A stretch of DNA of 15,982 bases. Origin: a virus (Duplodnaviria; Heunggongvirae; Uroviricota; Caudoviricetes). Each line of letters opens with the position of its first letter. The first letter of the stretch is position 1. This document shows positions 3,979 to 15,982 of the stretch, in pieces. The stretch lies in IMG/VR virus record IMGVR_UViG_2737471818_000008, one strand, 5' to 3'. Under the pieces are notes generated by a model. The model did no database searches. It was not told the DNA's origin and saw nothing but the letters and a program-made list of their open reading frames with translations. Made by a program: the position numbers and the translations under genes.

Positions 3979-4176
3979 ATGTCAAATACGCTTATTCGTT
4001 TAACAGAAGTTCAGCGTAGAACTGGATATAGCAAGGCATGGATTTATCGCCTTATGGGGCAAGGTAAATTTCCTGCATCAGTTAAAATTGGCTCGCGAGC
4101 TATTGCTTTCGTTGAGAGTGAAATTGACGAGTGGATTAATCAGCGTATTGCGGAATCACGCGGAACAGCTACCTGA
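3979..4176 (+). CDS. alpA: AlpA-family phage transcriptional regulator / excisionase-like DNA-binding protein
   Basis: 65-aa ORF with GAGG 7 nt upstream of the ATG. LIRLTEVQRRTGYSKAWIYRLMGQGKFPASVKIGSRAIAFVESEIDEWI is the characteristic AlpA/Vis-type winged-HTH sequence found after int in P4-like and PICI elements. Confidence 0.85.
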   Translation: MSNTLIRLTEVQRRTGYSKAWIYRLMGQGKFPASVKIGSRAIAFVESEIDEWINQRIAESRGTAT

Positions 4177-4253: not shown

Positions 4254-5054
4254 ATGAAATTTCCAAAAACGCCCGTACAGGGGCGGGGCTTCGTTCGGCC
4301 TGAAAACCAGAATCTGCAAAATTTCGGCGAAATTATCCCGATTATTTCCGGCGTTATTGGCGGGAGTGAAACCACTATTGTTAGCGCCAGAGCGTTACAT
4401 AAGGCGTTAGGTGTAGGGCGCGTTTTCCGTTCGTGGATCAAGGGGCGCATTGAAGAATACGGGTTCACGGAAGGCGTGGATTATGAGGTTGTTGAATATT
4501 TGAGCCGACCCGATCCGGTGAGCGCAAAATCTCGCCAGCAAACCGCTCTTGAGTACATCATCACAGTGAACATGGCGAAAGAACTGGCGATGGTAGAACG
4601 CACCGAACAGGGGCGCGCCGTTCGTCAGTACTTCATCAAATGCGAGGAAGAGCTACACAAGGTTGCGCCTGTACGTTCCGCAGCGTTACGCCGGGAACTG
4701 AAAGCCCGTATCACAGTTGCCAGCTACTTTAAGCCAATGTGTGCCGCGCTGGAGGCGTACCGGGCTGAACTGGGTAAAAACACTCTACAGCACCACTACA
4801 CCACGGAAGCCAATATGCTGGCGCGTATCGTGCTGGGTGGCATGACTGCAAAACAGTGGGCGCAGGCGAACGGCATCACAGGCGAACCACGCGACCACAT
4901 GAGCACGTTGCAGCTTGAGCACCTTTCTTACCTTGAGCAGAGCAATATCACGCTGATTGAGTTAGGCCAGGACTACCACCAGCGGAAAGCTGAATTAATT
5001 CGCCTTTCGCAGCGTTGGTTAGCCCGTCGCATGGAGGAAAACAGCCATGTGTAA
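4254..5054 (+). CDS. Phage antirepressor-like protein (AntA/ORF6N-type N-terminal domain)
   Basis: 266-aa ORF with CAGGAG upstream. The N-terminal stretch SARALHKALGVGRVFRSWIKGRIEEYGFTEGVDYEVV matches the pattern I associate with AntA/ORF6N antirepressor N-domains. The domain assignment is from memory and needs an HMM search. Confidence 0.6.
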   Translation: MKFPKTPVQGRGFVRPENQNLQNFGEIIPIISGVIGGSETTIVSARALHKALGVGRVFRSWIKGRIEEYGFTEGVDYEVVEYLSRPDPVSAKSRQQTALEYIITVNMAKELAMVERTEQGRAVRQYFIKCEEELHKVAPVRSAALRRELKARITVASYFKPMCAALEAYRAELGKNTLQHHYTTEANMLARIVLGGMTAKQWAQANGITGEPRDHMSTLQLEHLSYLEQSNITLIELGQDYHQRKAELIRLSQRWLARRMEENSHV

Positions 5055-6348
5055 CGCTCTGACCGTTACAAAAAGAGAAAGCGCCCCGTTGCCGGAGCGC
5101 CTTTGTGAACGAATAGCCTACTGCGCCATATTGCTTACTGTCTACGGGGCAGATTATAGCGTTGTGGTCGCACAGAGTGAAGGCGCTGATCACCGTTTCT
5201 ACAGCACGCCGGAAATGCAGAATATTTTGCTGCAAAATGCCGTTGGTCACGCCGTCCGGAAAGCAAAAAATTTTGCTGGTGGTGCGACCGATACGATTTT
5301 GTCAGGTCGCCAGGTGCTGATTAATCTGATGTCTGATTTCGTTCTGGATAAAACAAAGGCGACCGCAGAGGGCCGCCAGTGGGAAAGCTACATACTTGAA
5401 CGCATCGCCAACAATGCCAGATTTGCGGCTGGTGGACAATGTGTCAGCTTTGCACCAATGACTCTATGTTTAACTGAGGGTCATTATGGTGAATATGCTG
5501 GCTTGCTGGTGGGCTATTCCTGCTCTTTAACATTGCCATGCCGCGATGTTTTCCAGGTATGCGATCCCATTTTTGTGCGCCTGTACTCTTTAAGGAATTG
5601 CTCAAGGGCAAAAGCACATGGCGCGAATCTTTCTGATTCATGCTCTATCTTTCTGCGCCGTCTTTTCCGTGCCGGTGATGGTGTATTGGTTGATTCTTTG
5701 TTGGTCATGGCGCTGCCCTGTAAAACGATGCACCGTAGTTCCTCACACCACGGCGCTGGTGATGGTTACTCCTGTTCTTTGGCCTTGCGGCGCTGGCGGT
5801 ATTCAACTTCTCGCTTTAATGCTGCTGTTACAAACTGCCCTGTACTTTCACCAGGCATTTTTACCGCCTCAACATTGTTCATAACTTCATGCGGAACCCT
5901 TGCCGCAACTGTTTGTGATTTTGCGTTTACTGCTTTTGTCGCCATGTTGTGTACCCCTTACAAAAAACAAATGCAGTATGCAGGAAAAAAAATAAGTGTT
6001 CAACACTTGACGTGTTTAACACCTGGACTTAAATTGGTGTTCAACACCTTGTTGATGCAAGGTGCAGAAACGACAACGCCCCGCAGTGGTGGCACACATG
6101 CAGGACGTCTAACCACCAACGATAGCAAGAGTATCGAGGTAGCTATGAGAAATCATACCACACACCCGCAAGGGCGGGACTCGCACAACCTGAATAAATA
6201 CATCTGGCGTTTTATCGCCCTGAGCACGGCACAACCGCGCGTAATTCACATCGAGGCCACCAGCGAACAGGAAGCACGCCAGCAATCTCCTGATGGCTGC
6301 GTGATGGTATTCGCCGCCCGTATTCGCCAGGAGGTGGAACATGTGTAA
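5047..6348 (+). CDS. Hypothetical protein; only the 5' ~140 codons look coding. The 433-codon ORF is probably a chimeric read-through across an antisense gene, an intergenic operator region and a separate in-frame small gene
   Basis: Start ATG overlaps the stop of the upstream gene (ATGTGTAA). Codon usage over about 5047-5470 looks like normal coding sequence. Beyond that the translation becomes Cys/Ser/Thr-rich and crosses an operator/promoter cluster at 5996-6047. No in-frame stop exists before 6348. Confidence 0.25.
   Translation: MCNALTVTKRESAPLPERLCERIAYCAILLTVYGADYSVVVAQSEGADHRFYSTPEMQNILLQNAVGHAVRKAKNFAGGATDTILSGRQVLINLMSDFVLDKTKATAEGRQWESYILERIANNARFAAGGQCVSFAPMTLCLTEGHYGEYAGLLVGYSCSLTLPCRDVFQVCDPIFVRLYSLRNCSRAKAHGANLSDSCSIFLRRLFRAGDGVLVDSLLVMALPCKTMHRSSSHHGAGDGYSCSLALRRWRYSTSRFNAAVTNCPVLSPGIFTASTLFITSCGTLAATVCDFAFTAFVAMLCTPYKKQMQYAGKKISVQHLTCLTPGLKLVFNTLLMQGAETTTPRSGGTHAGRLTTNDSKSIEVAMRNHTTHPQGRDSHNLNKYIWRFIALSTAQPRVIHIEATSEQEARQQSPDGCVMVFAARIRQEVEHV
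5766..5945 (-). CDS. Small ribbon-helix-helix-like DNA-binding protein (59 aa), candidate repressor of the divergent promoter; not in the supplied ORF track because it is under 60 aa
   Basis: Hand-translated from the minus strand: MATKAVNAKSQTVAARVPHEVMNNVEAVKMPGESTGQFVTAALKREVEYRQRRKAKEQE. AAGGGG lies 8 nt upstream of the ATG. The pattern is strand (TVAARV), helix, loop, helix. Three palindromic operators lie immediately upstream. Confidence 0.4.
   Translation of the reverse strand: MATKAVNAKSQTVAARVPHEVMNNVEAVKMPGESTGQFVTAALKREVEYRQRRKAKEQE
5996..6047. promoter_or_regulatory. Divergent promoter/operator region: three GTGTT(C/T)AACAC palindromes overlapping a sigma70-like promoter
   Basis: Seen directly: GTGTTCAACAC (5996-6006), GTGTTTAACAC (6012-6022), GTGTTCAACAC (6037-6047). 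TTGACG (6007-6012), a 17-bp spacer, then TAAATT (6030-6035) forms a plus-strand promoter with operators flanking the -35 and overlapping the spacer and the region just downstream of the -10. Confidence 0.55.
6145..6348 (+). CDS. Small protein (67 aa), possibly Icd-like host cell-division inhibitor family; first gene of the rightward operon
   Basis: In-frame ATG at 6145 with GAGG 6 nt upstream, downstream of the operator/promoter cluster. MRNHTTHPQGRDSHNLNKYIWRFIALSTAQPRVIHIEATSEQEARQQSPDGCVMVFAARIRQEVEHV resembles my recollection of Icd-like small proteins in P4-like prophages. Unverified. Confidence 0.4.
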   Translation: MRNHTTHPQGRDSHNLNKYIWRFIALSTAQPRVIHIEATSEQEARQQSPDGCVMVFAARIRQEVEHV

Positions 6349-6565
6349 TGCAACATGGCCTGATGCAGCGGTAGACGCTATCAAAACGCTGATGGATTCA
6401 CTTATTGAGATTTCTGCTATCGCTGGTGTGGCGCATAAACACGCAGCCAGAGAATCAGAATGCATCTCCCATTATTTAGCATTTGTGCAGCTAAAAGCCG
6501 ATCAGGCACTGGATAAGGCCGGAAAAATTATCATGGCTGATGTGCAGGAGGTGCACCATGCATAA
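6341..6565 (+). CDS. Hypothetical small protein (74 aa)
   Basis: ORF with AGGAGG 9 nt upstream of the ATG. Start overlaps the preceding stop (ATGTGTAA); first of a chain of overlapping small genes. Confidence 0.55.
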   Translation: MCNATWPDAAVDAIKTLMDSLIEISAIAGVAHKHAARESECISHYLAFVQLKADQALDKAGKIIMADVQEVHHA

Positions 6566-7346: not shown

Positions 7347-7637
7347 ATGAAAAAGAAAAATTCTGGCTTTACTGCCAGCGGCCTCTCTCGGCCTGAAATC
7401 CGCCCCGGTGATATTTTCCGGGACACCAGACGCGGGGGACGGGTGGTTATTCGTCACGTTACGCCAGGCAATATCACCTACCGCCGTGAGGCTTACGAAT
7501 ATGACTGCGTAATGCCGCGCCGTCAGTTTGATCGTGATTTTATTCTGGTGGAAAACAAACAACAGGCAGTGGCGAGACGTGCAGCCACGAATATTAAAAA
7601 AATCCGGGCAATGTTGGTTGCGGGAGGTAAGAAGTGA
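7347..7637 (+). CDS. Hypothetical basic protein (96 aa)
   Basis: ORF immediately after the previous stop; its stop overlaps the primase GTG start (GTGA). Confidence 0.6.
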   Translation: MKKKNSGFTASGLSRPEIRPGDIFRDTRRGGRVVIRHVTPGNITYRREAYEYDCVMPRRQFDRDFILVENKQQAVARRAATNIKKIRAMLVAGGKK

Positions 7638-9439
7638 AAAACGCACCGAGTCTAAAATATCAGCCGAAGGATAAATTCACTGAGGTAATCATTTTTGCCG
7701 GGACGGATGCTTACGCCCATGCTCAACACTGGATTGAAAGTGAAGGACGAAAACACGGCGATAACGTGCCTCCTGTTTACCTGGGGCCAAAGCAACTGGC
7801 AGACCTGGCGAATATCCGCATTATTGACGAGAAACGCCGTTTTGCGCGTGTCTATATCGCGGGGGAGATAGAGCCAATCCAGATCAATACTATCGCTGAA
7901 AAGCTGGCGCTGGCTGGCGTACAGGAGGCGAAATTATACAAAGGTATCACCGACCAGGAACCGGAGAACTGGCGCGACTACCTGCAACGGATCCGCGAAC
8001 AGGCTGAGCACGGGGAAGTTTCAGTGATGAAATTAGCTACAAAAAATAGTGGTCTACCCAAGCCTGCATTAAATCAGATGGGAGCCAGCCAGAGAGGGGA
8101 GGTGTTACTTGAACATTATGGAGGAGCACTGGCGATAAATGATGATTCTGATGTAGTTCACCATTACAACGGAATTGTTTGGGAGCCTGTATCTGATAAA
8201 GAACTCCAGCGGTCTATGGCGAAGATTTTTATTGATGCCGAAATTAGTTATTCGCAAAACGCCATTAAATTTGCCGTAGAGACAATGAAATTGAGTCTAC
8301 CTGTTATGGGGGGAGCGGACAGAAATCTTATTGGGTTCAGTAACGGTGTTTTTGATATCAGGACAGGAAATTTTCGGGAACACAACAAAAATGACTGGTT
8401 GTTAAATGCCAGTGAATTACCGTTCAGCCCGCCAGAAGAGGGGGAAACGCTGGCAACACATGCGCCGAATTTCTGGAAGTGGTTGCGTCGTTCGGTGGCG
8501 GATAATGCTCGTAAAGCGGATCGCGTACTGGCGGCATTATTCATGGTACTGGCGAACCGGTACGACTGGCAGTTATTCCTTGAGGTAACGGGGCCGGGCG
8601 GAAGCGGTAAAAGTGTGATGGCGGAGATTTGTACCATGCTGGCGGGTAAGGCCAATACAGTATCGGCGAGCATGAAGGCGCTGGAAGACGCGAGGGAACG
8701 AGCGTTAGTGGTAGGATATTCTCTGATTATCATGCCTGACATGACCCGCTACGCAGGTGATGGTGCTGGGATTAAGGCCATTACAGGCGGTGACAAGGTG
8801 GCTATCGATCCGAAACACAAAGCGCCCTATTCCACGCGCGTTCCTGCGGTAGTGCTGGCAGTAAACAATAATGCCATGTCATTCAGCGACCGTAGTGGGG
8901 GGATCTCGCGTCGACGAGTGATATTTAATTTCTCTGAGGTTGTACCAGAGAACGAACGCGATCCGATGCTGGCGAAAAAGATAGAAGGGGAACTGGCCGT
9001 AGTGATTCGCCATTTGCTTACACGATTTGCCGACCAGGACGAAGCGAAAAGACTACTTTATGAGCAGCAAAAATCAGAAGAAGCACTGTTAATAAAGCGT
9101 GAAGGTGATTCGCTGGTGGACTTCTGCGGTTATCTGATGTCGTTGGTTAAATGTGAGGGGATGATAGTAGGTAATGCAGAAATAGTGCCATTTAGCCCGA
9201 GGCGATATCTGTATCATGCTTATTTGGCTTATATGTCTGCGCATGGTCTGGGAAAACCGGTATCACTGACACGCTTTGGTACAGATATGCCAGGGGCAAT
9301 GGCTGAGTACGGAAAGGAGTACAAGCGGGCTAAATGCACTAAAGGTCCAGATAAAGGGCGAACGATCACAAATGTTCTGTTAGATAAAGATGCTGATGGA
9401 TGGTTACCAGCAGCGGCAGGCATTAACGACAGAACATGA
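7634..9439 (+). CDS. Phage/plasmid primase, P4 family (primase-helicase with C-terminal NTPase domain)
   Basis: 601-aa ORF with GTG start and GGGAGG upstream. Walker A GPGGSGKS and a downstream Walker-B-like acidic motif; overall architecture typical of P4 alpha-like / PICI pri-rep proteins. An iteron array follows immediately. Confidence 0.88.
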   Translation: MKNAPSLKYQPKDKFTEVIIFAGTDAYAHAQHWIESEGRKHGDNVPPVYLGPKQLADLANIRIIDEKRRFARVYIAGEIEPIQINTIAEKLALAGVQEAKLYKGITDQEPENWRDYLQRIREQAEHGEVSVMKLATKNSGLPKPALNQMGASQRGEVLLEHYGGALAINDDSDVVHHYNGIVWEPVSDKELQRSMAKIFIDAEISYSQNAIKFAVETMKLSLPVMGGADRNLIGFSNGVFDIRTGNFREHNKNDWLLNASELPFSPPEEGETLATHAPNFWKWLRRSVADNARKADRVLAALFMVLANRYDWQLFLEVTGPGGSGKSVMAEICTMLAGKANTVSASMKALEDARERALVVGYSLIIMPDMTRYAGDGAGIKAITGGDKVAIDPKHKAPYSTRVPAVVLAVNNNAMSFSDRSGGISRRRVIFNFSEVVPENERDPMLAKKIEGELAVVIRHLLTRFADQDEAKRLLYEQQKSEEALLIKREGDSLVDFCGYLMSLVKCEGMIVGNAEIVPFSPRRYLYHAYLAYMSAHGLGKPVSLTRFGTDMPGAMAEYGKEYKRAKCTKGPDKGRTITNVLLDKDADGWLPAAAGINDRT

Positions 9440-9807: not shown

Positions 9808-10350
9808 ATGGGGCAAAGCATGACTAAGCTGACCATTAACAGAAAACCGAAAGGCATTTACGGCACGCCGCAGAAAACGACGCAGGCGGCACAGGAGCAG
9901 GATAAAACCACGTCGGCGCATAAAGTGATGCCCGGTAACCAGAAAGCGCAGCAGAAGCCCACAGGGGCGACACCGTGGCGGCATATGACCAAGCGCCAGC
10001 GCAAAAACCGCAGGCGCATTAACCGCCTCACTGAGTTGTGGCCTGAATTATTCAGCCGGGAAGCACCGAAGCCGCTTAAGGTGGGGATATTCGACGACCT
10101 GATGCAGGATCTCGCCGTCAGGGGGCTGGCATTCGGTCTAGGGGCATTGCGTGCGACGCTGGCATCTTATGCACAGTGTCCGCGCTATTACCGCGCCTTA
10201 ATGGCTGGTGGGGTACGCTACGACCTGAAAGGCCAGCCGTGCGGCGAGGTGACACCACAGGAACAACAGGACGCAGAAACGCGGCTGGTGGCGCTGAATG
10301 AGAAGCGCAAACGTCAGCGCCGGGTAGCAAAGGAGAAAACAGGCGCATGA
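9808..10350 (+). CDS. ProQ/FinO-domain RNA-binding protein (RNA chaperone family)
   Basis: The segment ELFSREAPKPLKVGIFDDLMQDL...YAQCPRYYRALMAGGVRYDLKGQPCGEVT aligns by eye with the E. coli ProQ N-terminal FinO-like domain (PLKIGIFQDL...RVDLDGNPCGEL). Basic, low-complexity N-terminus. The start may be ATG 9808 or ATG 9820. Confidence 0.8.
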   Translation: MGQSMTKLTINRKPKGIYGTPQKTTQAAQEQDKTTSAHKVMPGNQKAQQKPTGATPWRHMTKRQRKNRRRINRLTELWPELFSREAPKPLKVGIFDDLMQDLAVRGLAFGLGALRATLASYAQCPRYYRALMAGGVRYDLKGQPCGEVTPQEQQDAETRLVALNEKRKRQRRVAKEKTGA

Positions 10351-10634
10351 TTCACGACAGCAAAGCGGAAGCACTGGAAGCGCGTGGTCTGTACCGGAGA
10401 GCGGCGGCGCGGTGGGCTGAGGTCATCATGCTGGCGAATGATGACAAGGCACGGGAACAGGCGGCAAAACGTCGCGCGGAATGTATCCGCAAGGCAGCAC
10501 GCCCACCAGCAAGGCAGGATAATTTCGGGGAGATGCGCGAAACCATCAGCCGGGCACATGCCGGGATGGGATTACATCAGCCCAATGGTAAGGCATTCAG
10601 GAAATACCCTGGATCGAAAAATTGCAGTCAGTGA
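10347..10634 (+). CDS. Small regulatory protein, possibly a PerC-family transcriptional activator
   Basis: 95-aa ORF translationally coupled to the upstream gene (ATGA overlap). The N-terminal AEALEARGLYRRAAARWAEVI resembles the conserved N-terminus I recall for PerC-family proteins. Family assignment is from memory. Confidence 0.6.
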   Translation: MIHDSKAEALEARGLYRRAAARWAEVIMLANDDKAREQAAKRRAECIRKAARPPARQDNFGEMRETISRAHAGMGLHQPNGKAFRKYPGSKNCSQ

Positions 10635-14233: not shown

Positions 14234-15982
14234 GTGAAAATATCTTTTTTTGGCGTAAATAACTTTAGGACAATATCAGGTGGCATTGGTAATAATAGAA
14301 TAATATTTAAAGATAGCAATACGCTTTTCATTTACGGGGCAAACAATGCTGGAAAATCAACTTATTTAAAAGCATATATGTTTTTTTACAGTAATGAAAA
14401 ACCTATCATTGATGATTTCTTTAAACGAGACGACAATAATTCTATTGAGTTTGAATTAGAAGTTCAACTTGATGACTTGGATAAAGAAAGAATAGAAGCC
14501 AAAGCACCGAAGCAAAAGGAAAGTTATAAGAAGTATTTAAATAATGATTTTATTAGAATTAAGAAAGTATGGAGTAAAAATGGAACAAGAATAGAGGATA
14601 AAAATTATACTTATGATTATAGTAAAGGAGATAGCGGCGAGTATGATGAAGTTGGATATGCAACGATTGGTTTGCATCAGGTCTTCCAATCTTGTTTGCC
14701 AAAACCTGTATTTATAAAGGCTATGCCAACAGAGGAAGAAGCTAAGAAGATTCTTAATGAAATCCTAAAGATGATGGCTGAAAATACACTTAAAACATCT
14801 GATCTTGATGAATTAAAAGCAGCTCAGAATAAAATAAAAGAATTACAAGACAAAATGTATGATCCAGAATTGATTGAGACCTATCAGAATTCAGTTAACG
14901 GATACTTTAACAAGATATTCGGTGATACTGCTATATGCTTCAAAGATCAAAAAGATAGGGTTGTTTGGACGGAGAATAAGCTTGGCAGAGATTTTGAAAT
15001 TGAGTTTATGAAAAAAAATAGCCAAGGGGAGTTTGATGGCAATATCCCTTCAAGTTATAGCAGTGTAGGTCATGGAACTATTAGGACTGCAATATTTACA
15101 TTATTATTGATGAGAGATGTAGCAGAGCGTTTTGAAAGAAGGCTTGGACGTAAGGATTACATGGTTCTGTTTGAGGAGCCTGAGCTATTTCTCTATCCTA
15201 GAATGGTGAAGGAACTTCGTGAATTGATTTATCAGGTGAGCACTGAAGACCTTCCATATCAAGTACTTTGTGCCTCACATTCATCTTCCATGATAGATCT
15301 TTCAAAGCCTAAATCTTCGATAATACGATTAGTTAATAATTCTACTGGAACTAAATCATATCAAATTAATGATCAATTTTTGAAGGATGCAAAAGGCATT
15401 GCTACAAATGCTGAACTTAAACAAGAAATGTATGAAGTTTTGAGGTTTAACCCTTATATTTGTGAATCATTCTACGCTGATGAGGTGCTTCTGATTGAGG
15501 GGCCAACAGAAGAAATAATATGTAGAGCTTTTTTACAAGAAACCCCATCAGATAAATCTATATTCGTATTGAACTGTGGTACGGTTAATAACATTCCTTT
15601 TTATCAAAAAATCTTCTCAAGGTTTAATATAAAATATCATGTGATCTGTGATACAGATAAAGCAGAAATAGTTACCGTAGATCAATCTGGCAATGCAGAT
15701 TTTGATTCTGGAATACAGAAAACAATTTCAGAACAGTATAGGAATGATTGTACTGCAATGAATGGTAATATAGGACTACTTCGAACTCATAACATTACAT
15801 TTGAACCTGCTCATCAGGATGTTAGTATTCCTGACTTTTTGAGATTTGTTGATTGCGGTGATAGAAGCAAACCATTTAATGCAAACTTGTACTGGAAGGA
15901 TATTTTAAGGCCAAATATATCACATCAAGATATAAATAAAGTGCCTATAATTAAGTATTTGAATGAAATAATAGCACATTAA
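14234..15982 (+). CDS. OLD-family ATP-dependent nuclease (N-terminal ABC-type ATPase plus C-terminal TOPRIM domain); class 1 OLD or Gabija GajA-like; candidate anti-phage defence protein
   Basis: 582-aa ORF with GTG start and AAGGAAA upstream, in strongly AT-rich DNA. Motifs read directly: Walker A GANNAGKST (near 14336-14362), Walker B MVLFEEPELF (near 15161-15190), H-loop-like ASHS, TOPRIM glutamate LLIEGPTEE (near 15491-15517) and DxD ICDTDK (near 15644-15661). Size matches P2 Old and GajA. Confidence 0.85.
   Translation: MKISFFGVNNFRTISGGIGNNRIIFKDSNTLFIYGANNAGKSTYLKAYMFFYSNEKPIIDDFFKRDDNNSIEFELEVQLDDLDKERIEAKAPKQKESYKKYLNNDFIRIKKVWSKNGTRIEDKNYTYDYSKGDSGEYDEVGYATIGLHQVFQSCLPKPVFIKAMPTEEEAKKILNEILKMMAENTLKTSDLDELKAAQNKIKELQDKMYDPELIETYQNSVNGYFNKIFGDTAICFKDQKDRVVWTENKLGRDFEIEFMKKNSQGEFDGNIPSSYSSVGHGTIRTAIFTLLLMRDVAERFERRLGRKDYMVLFEEPELFLYPRMVKELRELIYQVSTEDLPYQVLCASHSSSMIDLSKPKSSIIRLVNNSTGTKSYQINDQFLKDAKGIATNAELKQEMYEVLRFNPYICESFYADEVLLIEGPTEEIICRAFLQETPSDKSIFVLNCGTVNNIPFYQKIFSRFNIKYHVICDTDKAEIVTVDQSGNADFDSGIQKTISEQYRNDCTAMNGNIGLLRTHNITFEPAHQDVSIPDFLRFVDCGDRSKPFNANLYWKDILRPNISHQDINKVPIIKYLNEIIAH

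Follow-up and report, generated by a model that had tools for sequence, protein, structure and literature searches.

The window analysed here, a stretch of 15,982 nucleotides (IMG/VR record IMGVR_UViG_2737471818_000008), has the gene content of a Gram-negative phage-inducible chromosomal island (PICI) and belongs to the EcCICFT073 type. The likely regulatory hub of this island is region 5514-6145. The best explanation of the region is probably a repressor-operator switch, in which a small minus-strand protein of the YlcI family, predicted to be ribbon-helix-helix (RHH)-like, acts on short palindromic operators, and which is nested in a long plus-strand open reading frame (ORF) kept open by selection. 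The elements of the proposed switch are as follows.

5047-6348, plus strand: Eta-like long ORF of 433 codons, running from the antA stop, on which it starts (ATGTGTAA), to the icd/kil stop
5766-5945, minus strand: ylcI-family gene, 59 aa, predicted RHH repressor
5954-5959, minus strand: Shine-Dalgarno (SD) sequence AAGGGG of ylcI, read from the sequence, 8 nt from the ATG
5975-6003, minus strand: putative ylcI promoter, with -35 TTGAAC (6003-5998, inside O1), 17 bp and -10 CATACT (5980-5975)
5996-6006: putative operator O1, GTGTTCAACAC, overlapping the -35 of the ylcI promoter and abutting the -35 of P_R
6007-6035, plus strand: rightward promoter P_R, TTGACG (6007-6012), 17 bp, TAAATT (6030-6035)
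6012-6022: putative operator O2, GTGTTTAACAC, beginning at the last base (G) of TTGACG and filling the P_R spacer
6037-6047: putative operator O3, GTGTTCAACAC, starting 1 nt past TAAATT and covering the expected P_R start site
About 5850-6047: exchangeable specificity cassette, comprising YlcI residues 1-31, both promoters and all operators (alignment A4)
6145-6348, plus strand: Icd-like gene, a P4 Kil homologue, nested in the 3' end of the long ORF and sharing its frame

Predicted repressor, operators and promoters

An initial annotation of the window described three GTGTT(C/T)AACAC copies upstream of the minus-strand gene, interdigitated with a TTGACG-17 bp-TAAATT promoter reading into the Icd-like gene and the primase, and proposed a repressor-operator switch of the replication operon. 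The sites and the promoter are present at those places, the promoter position is conserved in relatives, and the switch itself gains support from the co-variation and cassette exchange reported below. At up to one mismatch, GTGTTYAACAC sites are found nowhere else in the 15,982 bp. Six strand-matches were counted in the window against 0.51 expected, and none of 200 shuffles reached six. P_R is the sole sigma-70-like match within 5400-6400, and it is placed to drive the icd/kil-like gene, the small ORFs and the primase. The putative ylcI promoter is weak (8/12, under the threshold of the scanner), and its -10 (TATACT or CATACT) is kept in position among relatives. O1 lies between the two -35 elements and, with the ylcI -35 at 6003-5998, therefore overlaps that element. 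From this geometry, the usual layout of a repressed outward promoter combined with autoregulation can be inferred.

The region was compared in 32 loci taken from one genome per species, 6 loci found by exact protein look-up, and 39 IMG/VR loci. Three 11-bp sites occur at fixed positions around two promoters in about 50 loci from many enterobacterial genera. Nearly all loci share a common plan, in which a site over the ylcI -10 is followed by an A-rich spacer and the -35 TTGAC(G), a second site begins at the last base of this -35, and a third site lies 0-1 nt after a TAnnnT -10. About 40 cassettes have retained the spacing between the -35 (TTGAC or TTGAA) and the TAnnnT -10. Each site has 11 bp, mostly in the form GTG-N5-CAC; the copies agree within a locus, and the core differs between loci. 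The core of the site changes along with residues 12 and 14 of YlcI. At least 17 pairings of YlcI residues and site, each counted as a specificity, were found. Those tabulated are listed below by YlcI residues 10-16 and the matching site.

SQT(V/L/I)AAR: GTGTTCAACAC
S(K/R)KLEAR: GTGGCTGACAC
SKR(F/I)D(V/A)R: GTGTCCGACAC
SQKIHAR: GTGGAACAC
SQKLQAR: GTGGAGTCCAC
SQKMSAR: TGGGTGCCAG
SQS(V/L)TAR: GTGTAAGACAC
SQALKAR (EcCICFT073): GTGGGCCACAC

Loci L020 and L065 have unrelated backgrounds, and they share the same residues 12 and 14 and the same site, GTGTCCGACAC. The association was quantified by Mantel tests on 29 distinct cassettes, in which the N-terminal segment was defined as the 15 residues ending at P18 (arm and beta-strand). 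Operator distance correlated with the distance of this segment (r 0.52, p 2e-4) and with that of the rest of YlcI (r 0.38, p 0.03); the partial correlation with the N-terminal segment, given the rest of the protein, was 0.44. The non-operator spacer showed no significant correlation with the N-terminal segment in the same 29 cassettes (r 0.12, p 0.08). On either side of a block at about 5850-6047, a natural mosaic, L034/L035, is identical to the window, both in the rightward leader and in the C-terminal half of ylcI; it differs only within this block. The operators of this block read GTGTAAGACAC, and no other gene lies within it. The palindromes are taken to be YlcI operators on two grounds: the core co-varies with the residues predicted to face the DNA, and the palindromes and the N-terminal half of YlcI move together as a single cassette. 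These findings support the prediction that the 11-bp sites behave as YlcI operators, and the co-variation likewise supports a repressor-operator switch for the icd/kil-primase operon.

It is quite improbable that some other factor (AlpA, a host protein or a helper protein) binds the 11-bp sites, that YlcI is, for example, an antitoxin-like neutraliser of a toxic Icd/Kil, and that the co-variation merely reflects linkage. The swapped cassette contains no gene besides the ylcI part, the three sites change in concert while the spacer between them does not track the protein, and the variation is concentrated at the predicted DNA-facing residues 12 and 14. In addition, ylcI and icd are divergent and not co-transcribed, and YlcI carries no additional C-terminal domain.

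The minus-strand ORF 5766-5945 is translated as MATKAVNAKSQTVAARVPHEVMNNVEAVKMPGESTGQFVTAALKREVEYRQRRKAKEQE. The initial annotation credited this ORF with a good ribosome-binding site, which agrees with the AAGGGG listed above. It also called the ORF unannotated, which is incorrect, as RefSeq (PGAP) carries it as WP_000201462.1, 'YlcI/YnfO family protein'. Comparison with the NCBIfam model NF041551 gave 59.7 bits (cutoff 30, E 2.1e-16) over residues 9-50 and places the protein in that family; it also matches PHROG 949, itself of unknown function. Altogether, 74 homologues were found in Escherichia, Salmonella, Klebsiella, Pectobacterium, Serratia, Proteus, Xenorhabdus and other genera, and identity across many genera is 50-100%. 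M1, A2, T3, N7, K9, S10, R16, H19, Q37, F38, E46 and R50 are invariant in the family alignment. That the long ORF is the sole real gene and the 59-aa antisense ORF spurious is barely credible: some annotations do call the long ORF alone, but this is contradicted by the identity across genera, the invariant motifs and the matches to curated models. Moreover, ylcI keeps its own SD sequence and promoter layout and is present where the long frame is broken (L004/L005).

The sequence pattern of YlcI is of the RHH type. In the strand, positions 13, 15 and 17 are hydrophobic or small, and positions 12 and 14 are variable and polar; within the N-terminal region, variability is highest at position 14 (3.1 bits) and position 12 (2.2 bits). 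The turn G32-E33-S34 is nearly invariant in the family alignment and corresponds to the RHH-type G-x-S/T/N turn at the start of helix 2. Profile alignment with hhalign placed YlcI residues 9-31 on Arc 6-28 in register, with a weak E-value of 0.0075. In this register, the base-contacting Q9, N11 and R13 of Arc fall on YlcI 12, 14 and 16. A second in-register and weak alignment (E 0.011) places YlcI 8-50 on an Arc-like RHH protein (MSTPLEKRSPPYQMRLPEEF...) that occupies the antisense place of ylcI in two loci, at 3483-3656 of L074 and as a short minus-strand ORF of L076. This replacement protein is Arc-like by both PHROG 228 and Pfam Arc, and the long plus-strand ORF is still open across its gene.

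Long YlcI variants of 99-103 aa occur in L042, L049-L061, L064, L066, L069, L072 and L079. They carry an insertion of about 42 aa, ARRQAEGSGENPLVSSLDALAQVEKIGVKAAEEIGQLVTVAREEL, ahead of the common RRKAKEQE tail, which could be an added oligomerisation or sensing module. The K-12 ylcI gene (L083, DLP12, 8252-8446) was dropped as evidence. It lies beside cos/nohD of a lambdoid prophage without a comparable operator triplet, and it was set aside because of this different setting and the lack of a PICI-type switch. In sequence, it is similar to the divergent Klebsiella variant L030.

The long open reading frame around the proposed switch

The ylcI gene, the operators and both promoters all lie inside the long ORF, to which ylcI is antisense. 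The ATG of the long ORF overlaps the antA stop downstream of alpA, and its frame is that of 6145-6348. The overlapping stop/start ATGTGTAA is found both at 5047-5054, from antA to the long ORF, and at 6341-6348, from the icd-like gene to the next ORF. Its presence at both junctions suggests translational coupling along the operon. A search with the first 239 residues of the long ORF returned more than 1000 proteins, mostly of 320-419 aa and mostly named 'Icd-like'.

The initial annotation had found this 433-codon ORF and dismissed it as spurious. The ORF does exist, and the dismissal is reversed by the stop counts, by the relatives and by the length steps of the intergenic stretch. In the alignment, at least five different ylcI/operator cassettes are crossed by the long frame without a stop, despite unconserved sequence. 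Among the 39 IMG/VR loci, which were selected by the N-terminal peptide alone, 38 have no stop from the MCNALTVT start to the Icd-like stop, over 258-598 codons. In the variable middle regions (13 kb), the stops per plus frame number 0 against 236 and 274. The frame antisense to ylcI is open in 16 of 17 independent ylcI clusters, compared with 5.8 expected from synonymous-codon shuffles, and it is open in other genera too. The exception is L004/L005, where the long frame is broken and the operator/promoter layout found upstream of ylcI elsewhere is missing. The distance from the ylcI ATG to the icd ATG is 178-208 nt and changes by multiples of three, 35 of the 40 lengths being 1 mod 3. The icd frame runs through this intergenic stretch without a stop in 34 of 40 cases, where 2.8 would be expected, and the stops per frame number 21, 216 and 202. 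The wobble positions of ylcI and of the long ORF coincide (coordinates 0 mod 3), and there is therefore less mutual constraint between the two frames.

These comparisons show that selection keeps the frame of the long ORF open. Selection acts on openness, with the middle free at the amino-acid level and the N-terminus weakly constrained. It is very unlikely that the switch is real and the 433-codon ORF a functionless chance artefact. The middle has no conserved protein sequence, the ORF carries no domain, and PGAP marks just a pseudogene fragment at this place in E. coli EC11, all of which would fit an artefact; the stop counts, the 38 open relatives, the intergenic steps of three and the open frame antisense to ylcI contradict it. 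Both the short antisense genes and the long ORF merit keeping in the annotation.

Several observations weigh against a YlcI switch nested in a frame that selection keeps open. The co-variation of adjacent DNA could partly be linkage; the L034/L035 mosaic settles this question as far as sequence can. A Pfam scan of YlcI and 33 homologues found no significant RHH family, the best scores for YlcI being sub-threshold (PSK_trans_fac 0.03 and CB_ParB_C 0.15), and a sequence-profile search of the PDB gave chance matches only. A Foldseek comparison of YlcI with the PDB also gave no significant match. The RHH-like pattern claimed by the initial annotation stands as regards the strand pattern, the G-x-S turn and the alignment to Arc, which support the predicted fold, and falls short of strict RHH family membership. 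The cassette of the window lacks the site at the ylcI -10 that is present in most relatives; L006 has both an O1-type site and a site over the ylcI -10. For the long ORF, the intergenic part has a stop in about 8 of 32 loci from other genera, the middle is unconserved as protein, and the N-terminus has no codon periodicity over all loci (69, 71 and 68 variable columns by codon position). Synonymous and nonsynonymous changes in the N-terminus are about 1:1 in close pairs, so that constraint is weak. Because of the missing periodicity and this weak constraint, no claim of a folded N-terminal domain is made.

The long ORF may instead matter as a protein, that is, as an Eta-like fusion in which a variable linker joins an N-terminal module to a C-terminal Icd/Kil domain. 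This would make antisense ylcI a true overlapping gene pair, and it is compatible with the repressor model. Such a product is considered unlikely, while deserving more weight than the other alternatives. The long frame is maintained, databases and one PICI paper label the ORF 'Ash family' or Icd-like, the long ORF of EcCICFT073 has a Bro-N-like start fused in frame, and P4 Eta bears a Phage_ASH domain (PF10554, E 3.8e-23). On the other hand, the 200-400 residues of the middle are unconserved and the length ranges from 258 to 598 codons, the N-terminus is not periodic, and the ORF of the window has no Pfam domain, hence no Phage_ASH. Furthermore, its best-conserved motifs coincide with terminator-like hairpins of the minus strand, described below.

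According to the favoured repressor-operator switch, YlcI would be transcribed leftward from its weak promoter. The YlcI dimer would insert its N-terminal beta-ribbon into the GTG-N5-CAC sites, with residues 12 and 14 variable and Arg16 invariant. Bound YlcI would silence the icd/kil-like gene, the small ORFs and the primase while limiting its own synthesis. Residues 1-31 and the operators form an exchangeable cassette, which resembles the immunity types of temperate phages. By analogy with P4 eta/kil, ribosomes on an upstream, AlpA-dependent transcript would translate through the switch. Translation of the long ORF would shield this transcript from Rho termination, and the transcript could then run against ylcI transcription, across the operators and into the replication genes.

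It can be hypothesized, as a tentative extension, that the switch is a convergent-transcription toggle in which the repressor gene, the operators and both promoters are dual-coded in a translated Eta-like ORF. As long as the island is quiescent, the internal promoter would be kept shut by the RHH repressor. AlpA-driven read-through, made Rho-proof by translation of a merely open frame, would silence ylcI, sweep the operators and start replication.

The element and its neighbouring features

The window sequence is identical to the chromosome of E. coli EC11 (NZ_CP027255.1) and to IMG/VR contig UViG_2737471870_000008, and DNA related to it is found in 1695 of 5426 complete E. coli genomes. The gene order was taken from the RefSeq annotation and from profile scans (Pfam, NCBIfam, Rfam). 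Apart from the switch, the window contains the following.

1369-1441: tRNA gene
1611-2825: integrase
2870-2937: int-alpA RNA motif between int and the gene after it (Rfam, 45.5 bits, exceeding the gathering score)
Between the int-alpA RNA motif and AlpA: hypothetical gene
3979-4176: AlpA (PF05930, E 2.4e-19)
4254-5054: AntA/AntB (antA)
Downstream of the Icd-like gene and before the primase: five small ORFs and DUF4222
7634-9439: D5-type primase
9808-10634: ProQ/FinO and PerC family genes, 3' of the primase and followed by late/accessory genes
14234-15982: ATP-dependent (OLD-like) nuclease, its gene truncated by the 3' end of the window

The features expected of a Gram-negative PICI are found together here, namely int and alpA at one end, a D5-type primase module, PerC, and a tRNA gene next to int. 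This tRNA gene adjoins the integrase and is the likely attachment site. The nuclease, ProQ/FinO and PerC genes are accessory or defence cargo typical of such islands.

The minus strand carries a second gene and several hairpins downstream of ylcI, and the plus strand a structured leader.

5514-5708, minus strand: second gene, 64 aa, downstream of ylcI (phrog_21027, E 4.6e-29)
5730-5756, minus strand: terminator-like hairpin with a weak T-run, between ylcI and ORF 5514-5708
5358-5377 and 5078-5103, minus strand: strong terminator-like hairpins with T-runs, downstream of ORF 5514-5708
6078-6136, plus strand: conserved leader RNA of the P_R transcript
6078-6107, plus strand: leader hairpin 1
6108-6116, plus strand: invariant TCTAACCAC of the leader
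6120-6136, plus strand: leader hairpin 2, with the icd Shine-Dalgarno sequence in or beside the loop

The second minus-strand ORF, which the initial annotation had offered as a possibility, proved to be real by its PHROG match and is a PGAP coding sequence in strain S40. Diverged homologues occur in many relatives and in EcCICFT073. Its product has a basic N-terminus (RKRRRRK) and a RFAPCAFALEQFLKEYR motif and may be a second regulator. The leftward ylcI transcript probably continues past the weak hairpin into this ORF and probably stops at the hairpins 5377-5358 and 5103-5078. These two hairpins coincide with the best-conserved N-terminal motifs of the long ORF, DKTKATAEG and SAPLPERLCE, and the motifs may therefore be conserved at the DNA or RNA level. 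The sequence GGYTAYTCCTGYTCTTT is repeated at 5512-5528 and 5764-5780, the 3' ends of both minus-strand genes; its minus-strand reading is KEQE-stop, its plus-strand reading GYSCSL. It looks like a recombination module junction because some relatives, such as P0125, lack exactly the segment between the copies.

The leader was folded both as a single sequence and, with RNAalifold, as an alignment of 21 loci, in which 13 of 15 pairs showed compensatory changes. In the leader of the window, three pairs of hairpin 1 are broken. No Rfam family matched the leader (6078-6136). An inverted repeat, CACCTTG-ttgatg-CAAGGTG (6045-6064), overlaps O3 and lies where the predicted P_R transcript begins, and counterparts of different sequence occur in other cassettes.

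Significance and comparison with known systems

The study that first described Gram-negative PICIs reported that AlpA activates the genes of EcCICFT073 and left the global repressor 'unclear' (Fillol-Salom et al. 2018, PMC6092414). A conserved, cassette-variable predicted RHH repressor in the model island itself makes the question of the PICI repressor directly testable. If the prediction is true, the cassettes give Gram-negative PICIs at least 17 'immunity types' and supply the missing repressor. The pairings of strand residues with 11-bp sites, at least 17 in number, also form a natural recognition table. In addition, the constraint on promoters, operators and an antisense gene to stay an open reading frame is a clear and statistically strong case of dual coding. 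The region combines a P4 eta/kil architecture with a predicted RHH-like repressor-operator cassette, in a widespread satellite family to which no repressor had been assigned. Within the collection of papers searched, none gave a function for YlcI/YnfO/DUF3950 proteins or reported an RHH repressor in Gram-negative PICIs.

EcCICFT073 has the same order as the window, namely int, alpA, the long ORF, antisense ORF2 and ylcI, the icd-like gene, small ORFs, DUF4222, primase and PerC; a tRNA gene adjoins the integrase gene there and in other Gram-negative PICIs. EcCICFT073 differs in its predicted specificity, GTGGGCCACAC with Q11-A12-L13-K14-A15, whereas a separate antA is a feature of the window.

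YlcI resembles Arc, Mnt and CopG-type RHH repressors in size, in the predicted strand-helix-turn-helix pattern and in the G-x-S turn. Repeated short operators over promoter elements and, in the window, likely autoregulation are further similarities. Arc and Mnt have half-site arrangements, in contrast to the 11-bp GTG-N5-CAC units predicted here.

Stl of Staphylococcus aureus pathogenicity islands (SaPIs) and Rpr of Gram-positive PICIs are much larger proteins of another family. Like the predicted repressor YlcI, they are encoded divergently from the replication operon of a phage satellite; the analogy, which the initial annotation had drawn for Stl, is a functional one only. No Stl or Rpr family was found in the Pfam, NCBIfam and PHROG scans, and the Stl and Rpr sequences were not compared directly. 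Stl and Rpr are relieved by helper-phage proteins, and the window would also have an upstream, activator-driven read-through route.

In lambdoid and P2/186-type phages, repressor specificity and operators are also swapped as one cassette, which results in many 'immunity types', and phage 186 has opposing transcription across its switch, as is predicted for the window. The repressors of these phages are helix-turn-helix proteins, while that of the window would be RHH-like and its switch embedded in a long ORF.

Among the closest known architectures is that of P4 eta/kil. The Icd-like protein (6145-6348) matches NF033153 with E 3.8e-20 and P4 Kil (65 aa) matches the same model with E 1.6e-21; both also match phrog_1743. 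The homology of the Kil part runs via shared family models only, and direct BLASTP of P4 Eta against the long ORF of the window was not significant (E 1.4). A check of the P4 frame showed that the 197-codon eta ORF begins directly behind vis (AlpA-family) and has kil as its 3' part. PMC10111431, with reference to Forti et al. 1999, places a constitutive promoter inside eta and the CI immunity RNA there as well. It adds that translation of full-length Eta occurs only from the late promoter upstream and blocks termination, which lets the late transcript read through.

In both P4 and the window, a small Kil/Icd-like gene comes first after an internal promoter (PLE in P4), and a long ORF of the same frame starts upstream of that promoter near alpA/vis-side genes, with a shared stop and translational coupling. 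An immunity determinant, predicted in the case of the window, lies inside the long ORF, and the primase operon lies downstream. In P4, immunity is conferred by the CI RNA with seqA/seqC, which acts by transcription termination, whereas in the window the predicted determinant is a protein encoded on the opposite strand, and its operators lie at the internal promoter. An Rfam scan of the window (E up to 1) found no C4/isrK-type immunity RNA. The long ORF of the window also differs from that of P4 in its length (433 against 197 codons), in being coupled to antA instead of vis, and in lacking Phage_ASH. By this comparison of layout, the long ORF is a positional analogue of the nested eta/kil genes of P4.

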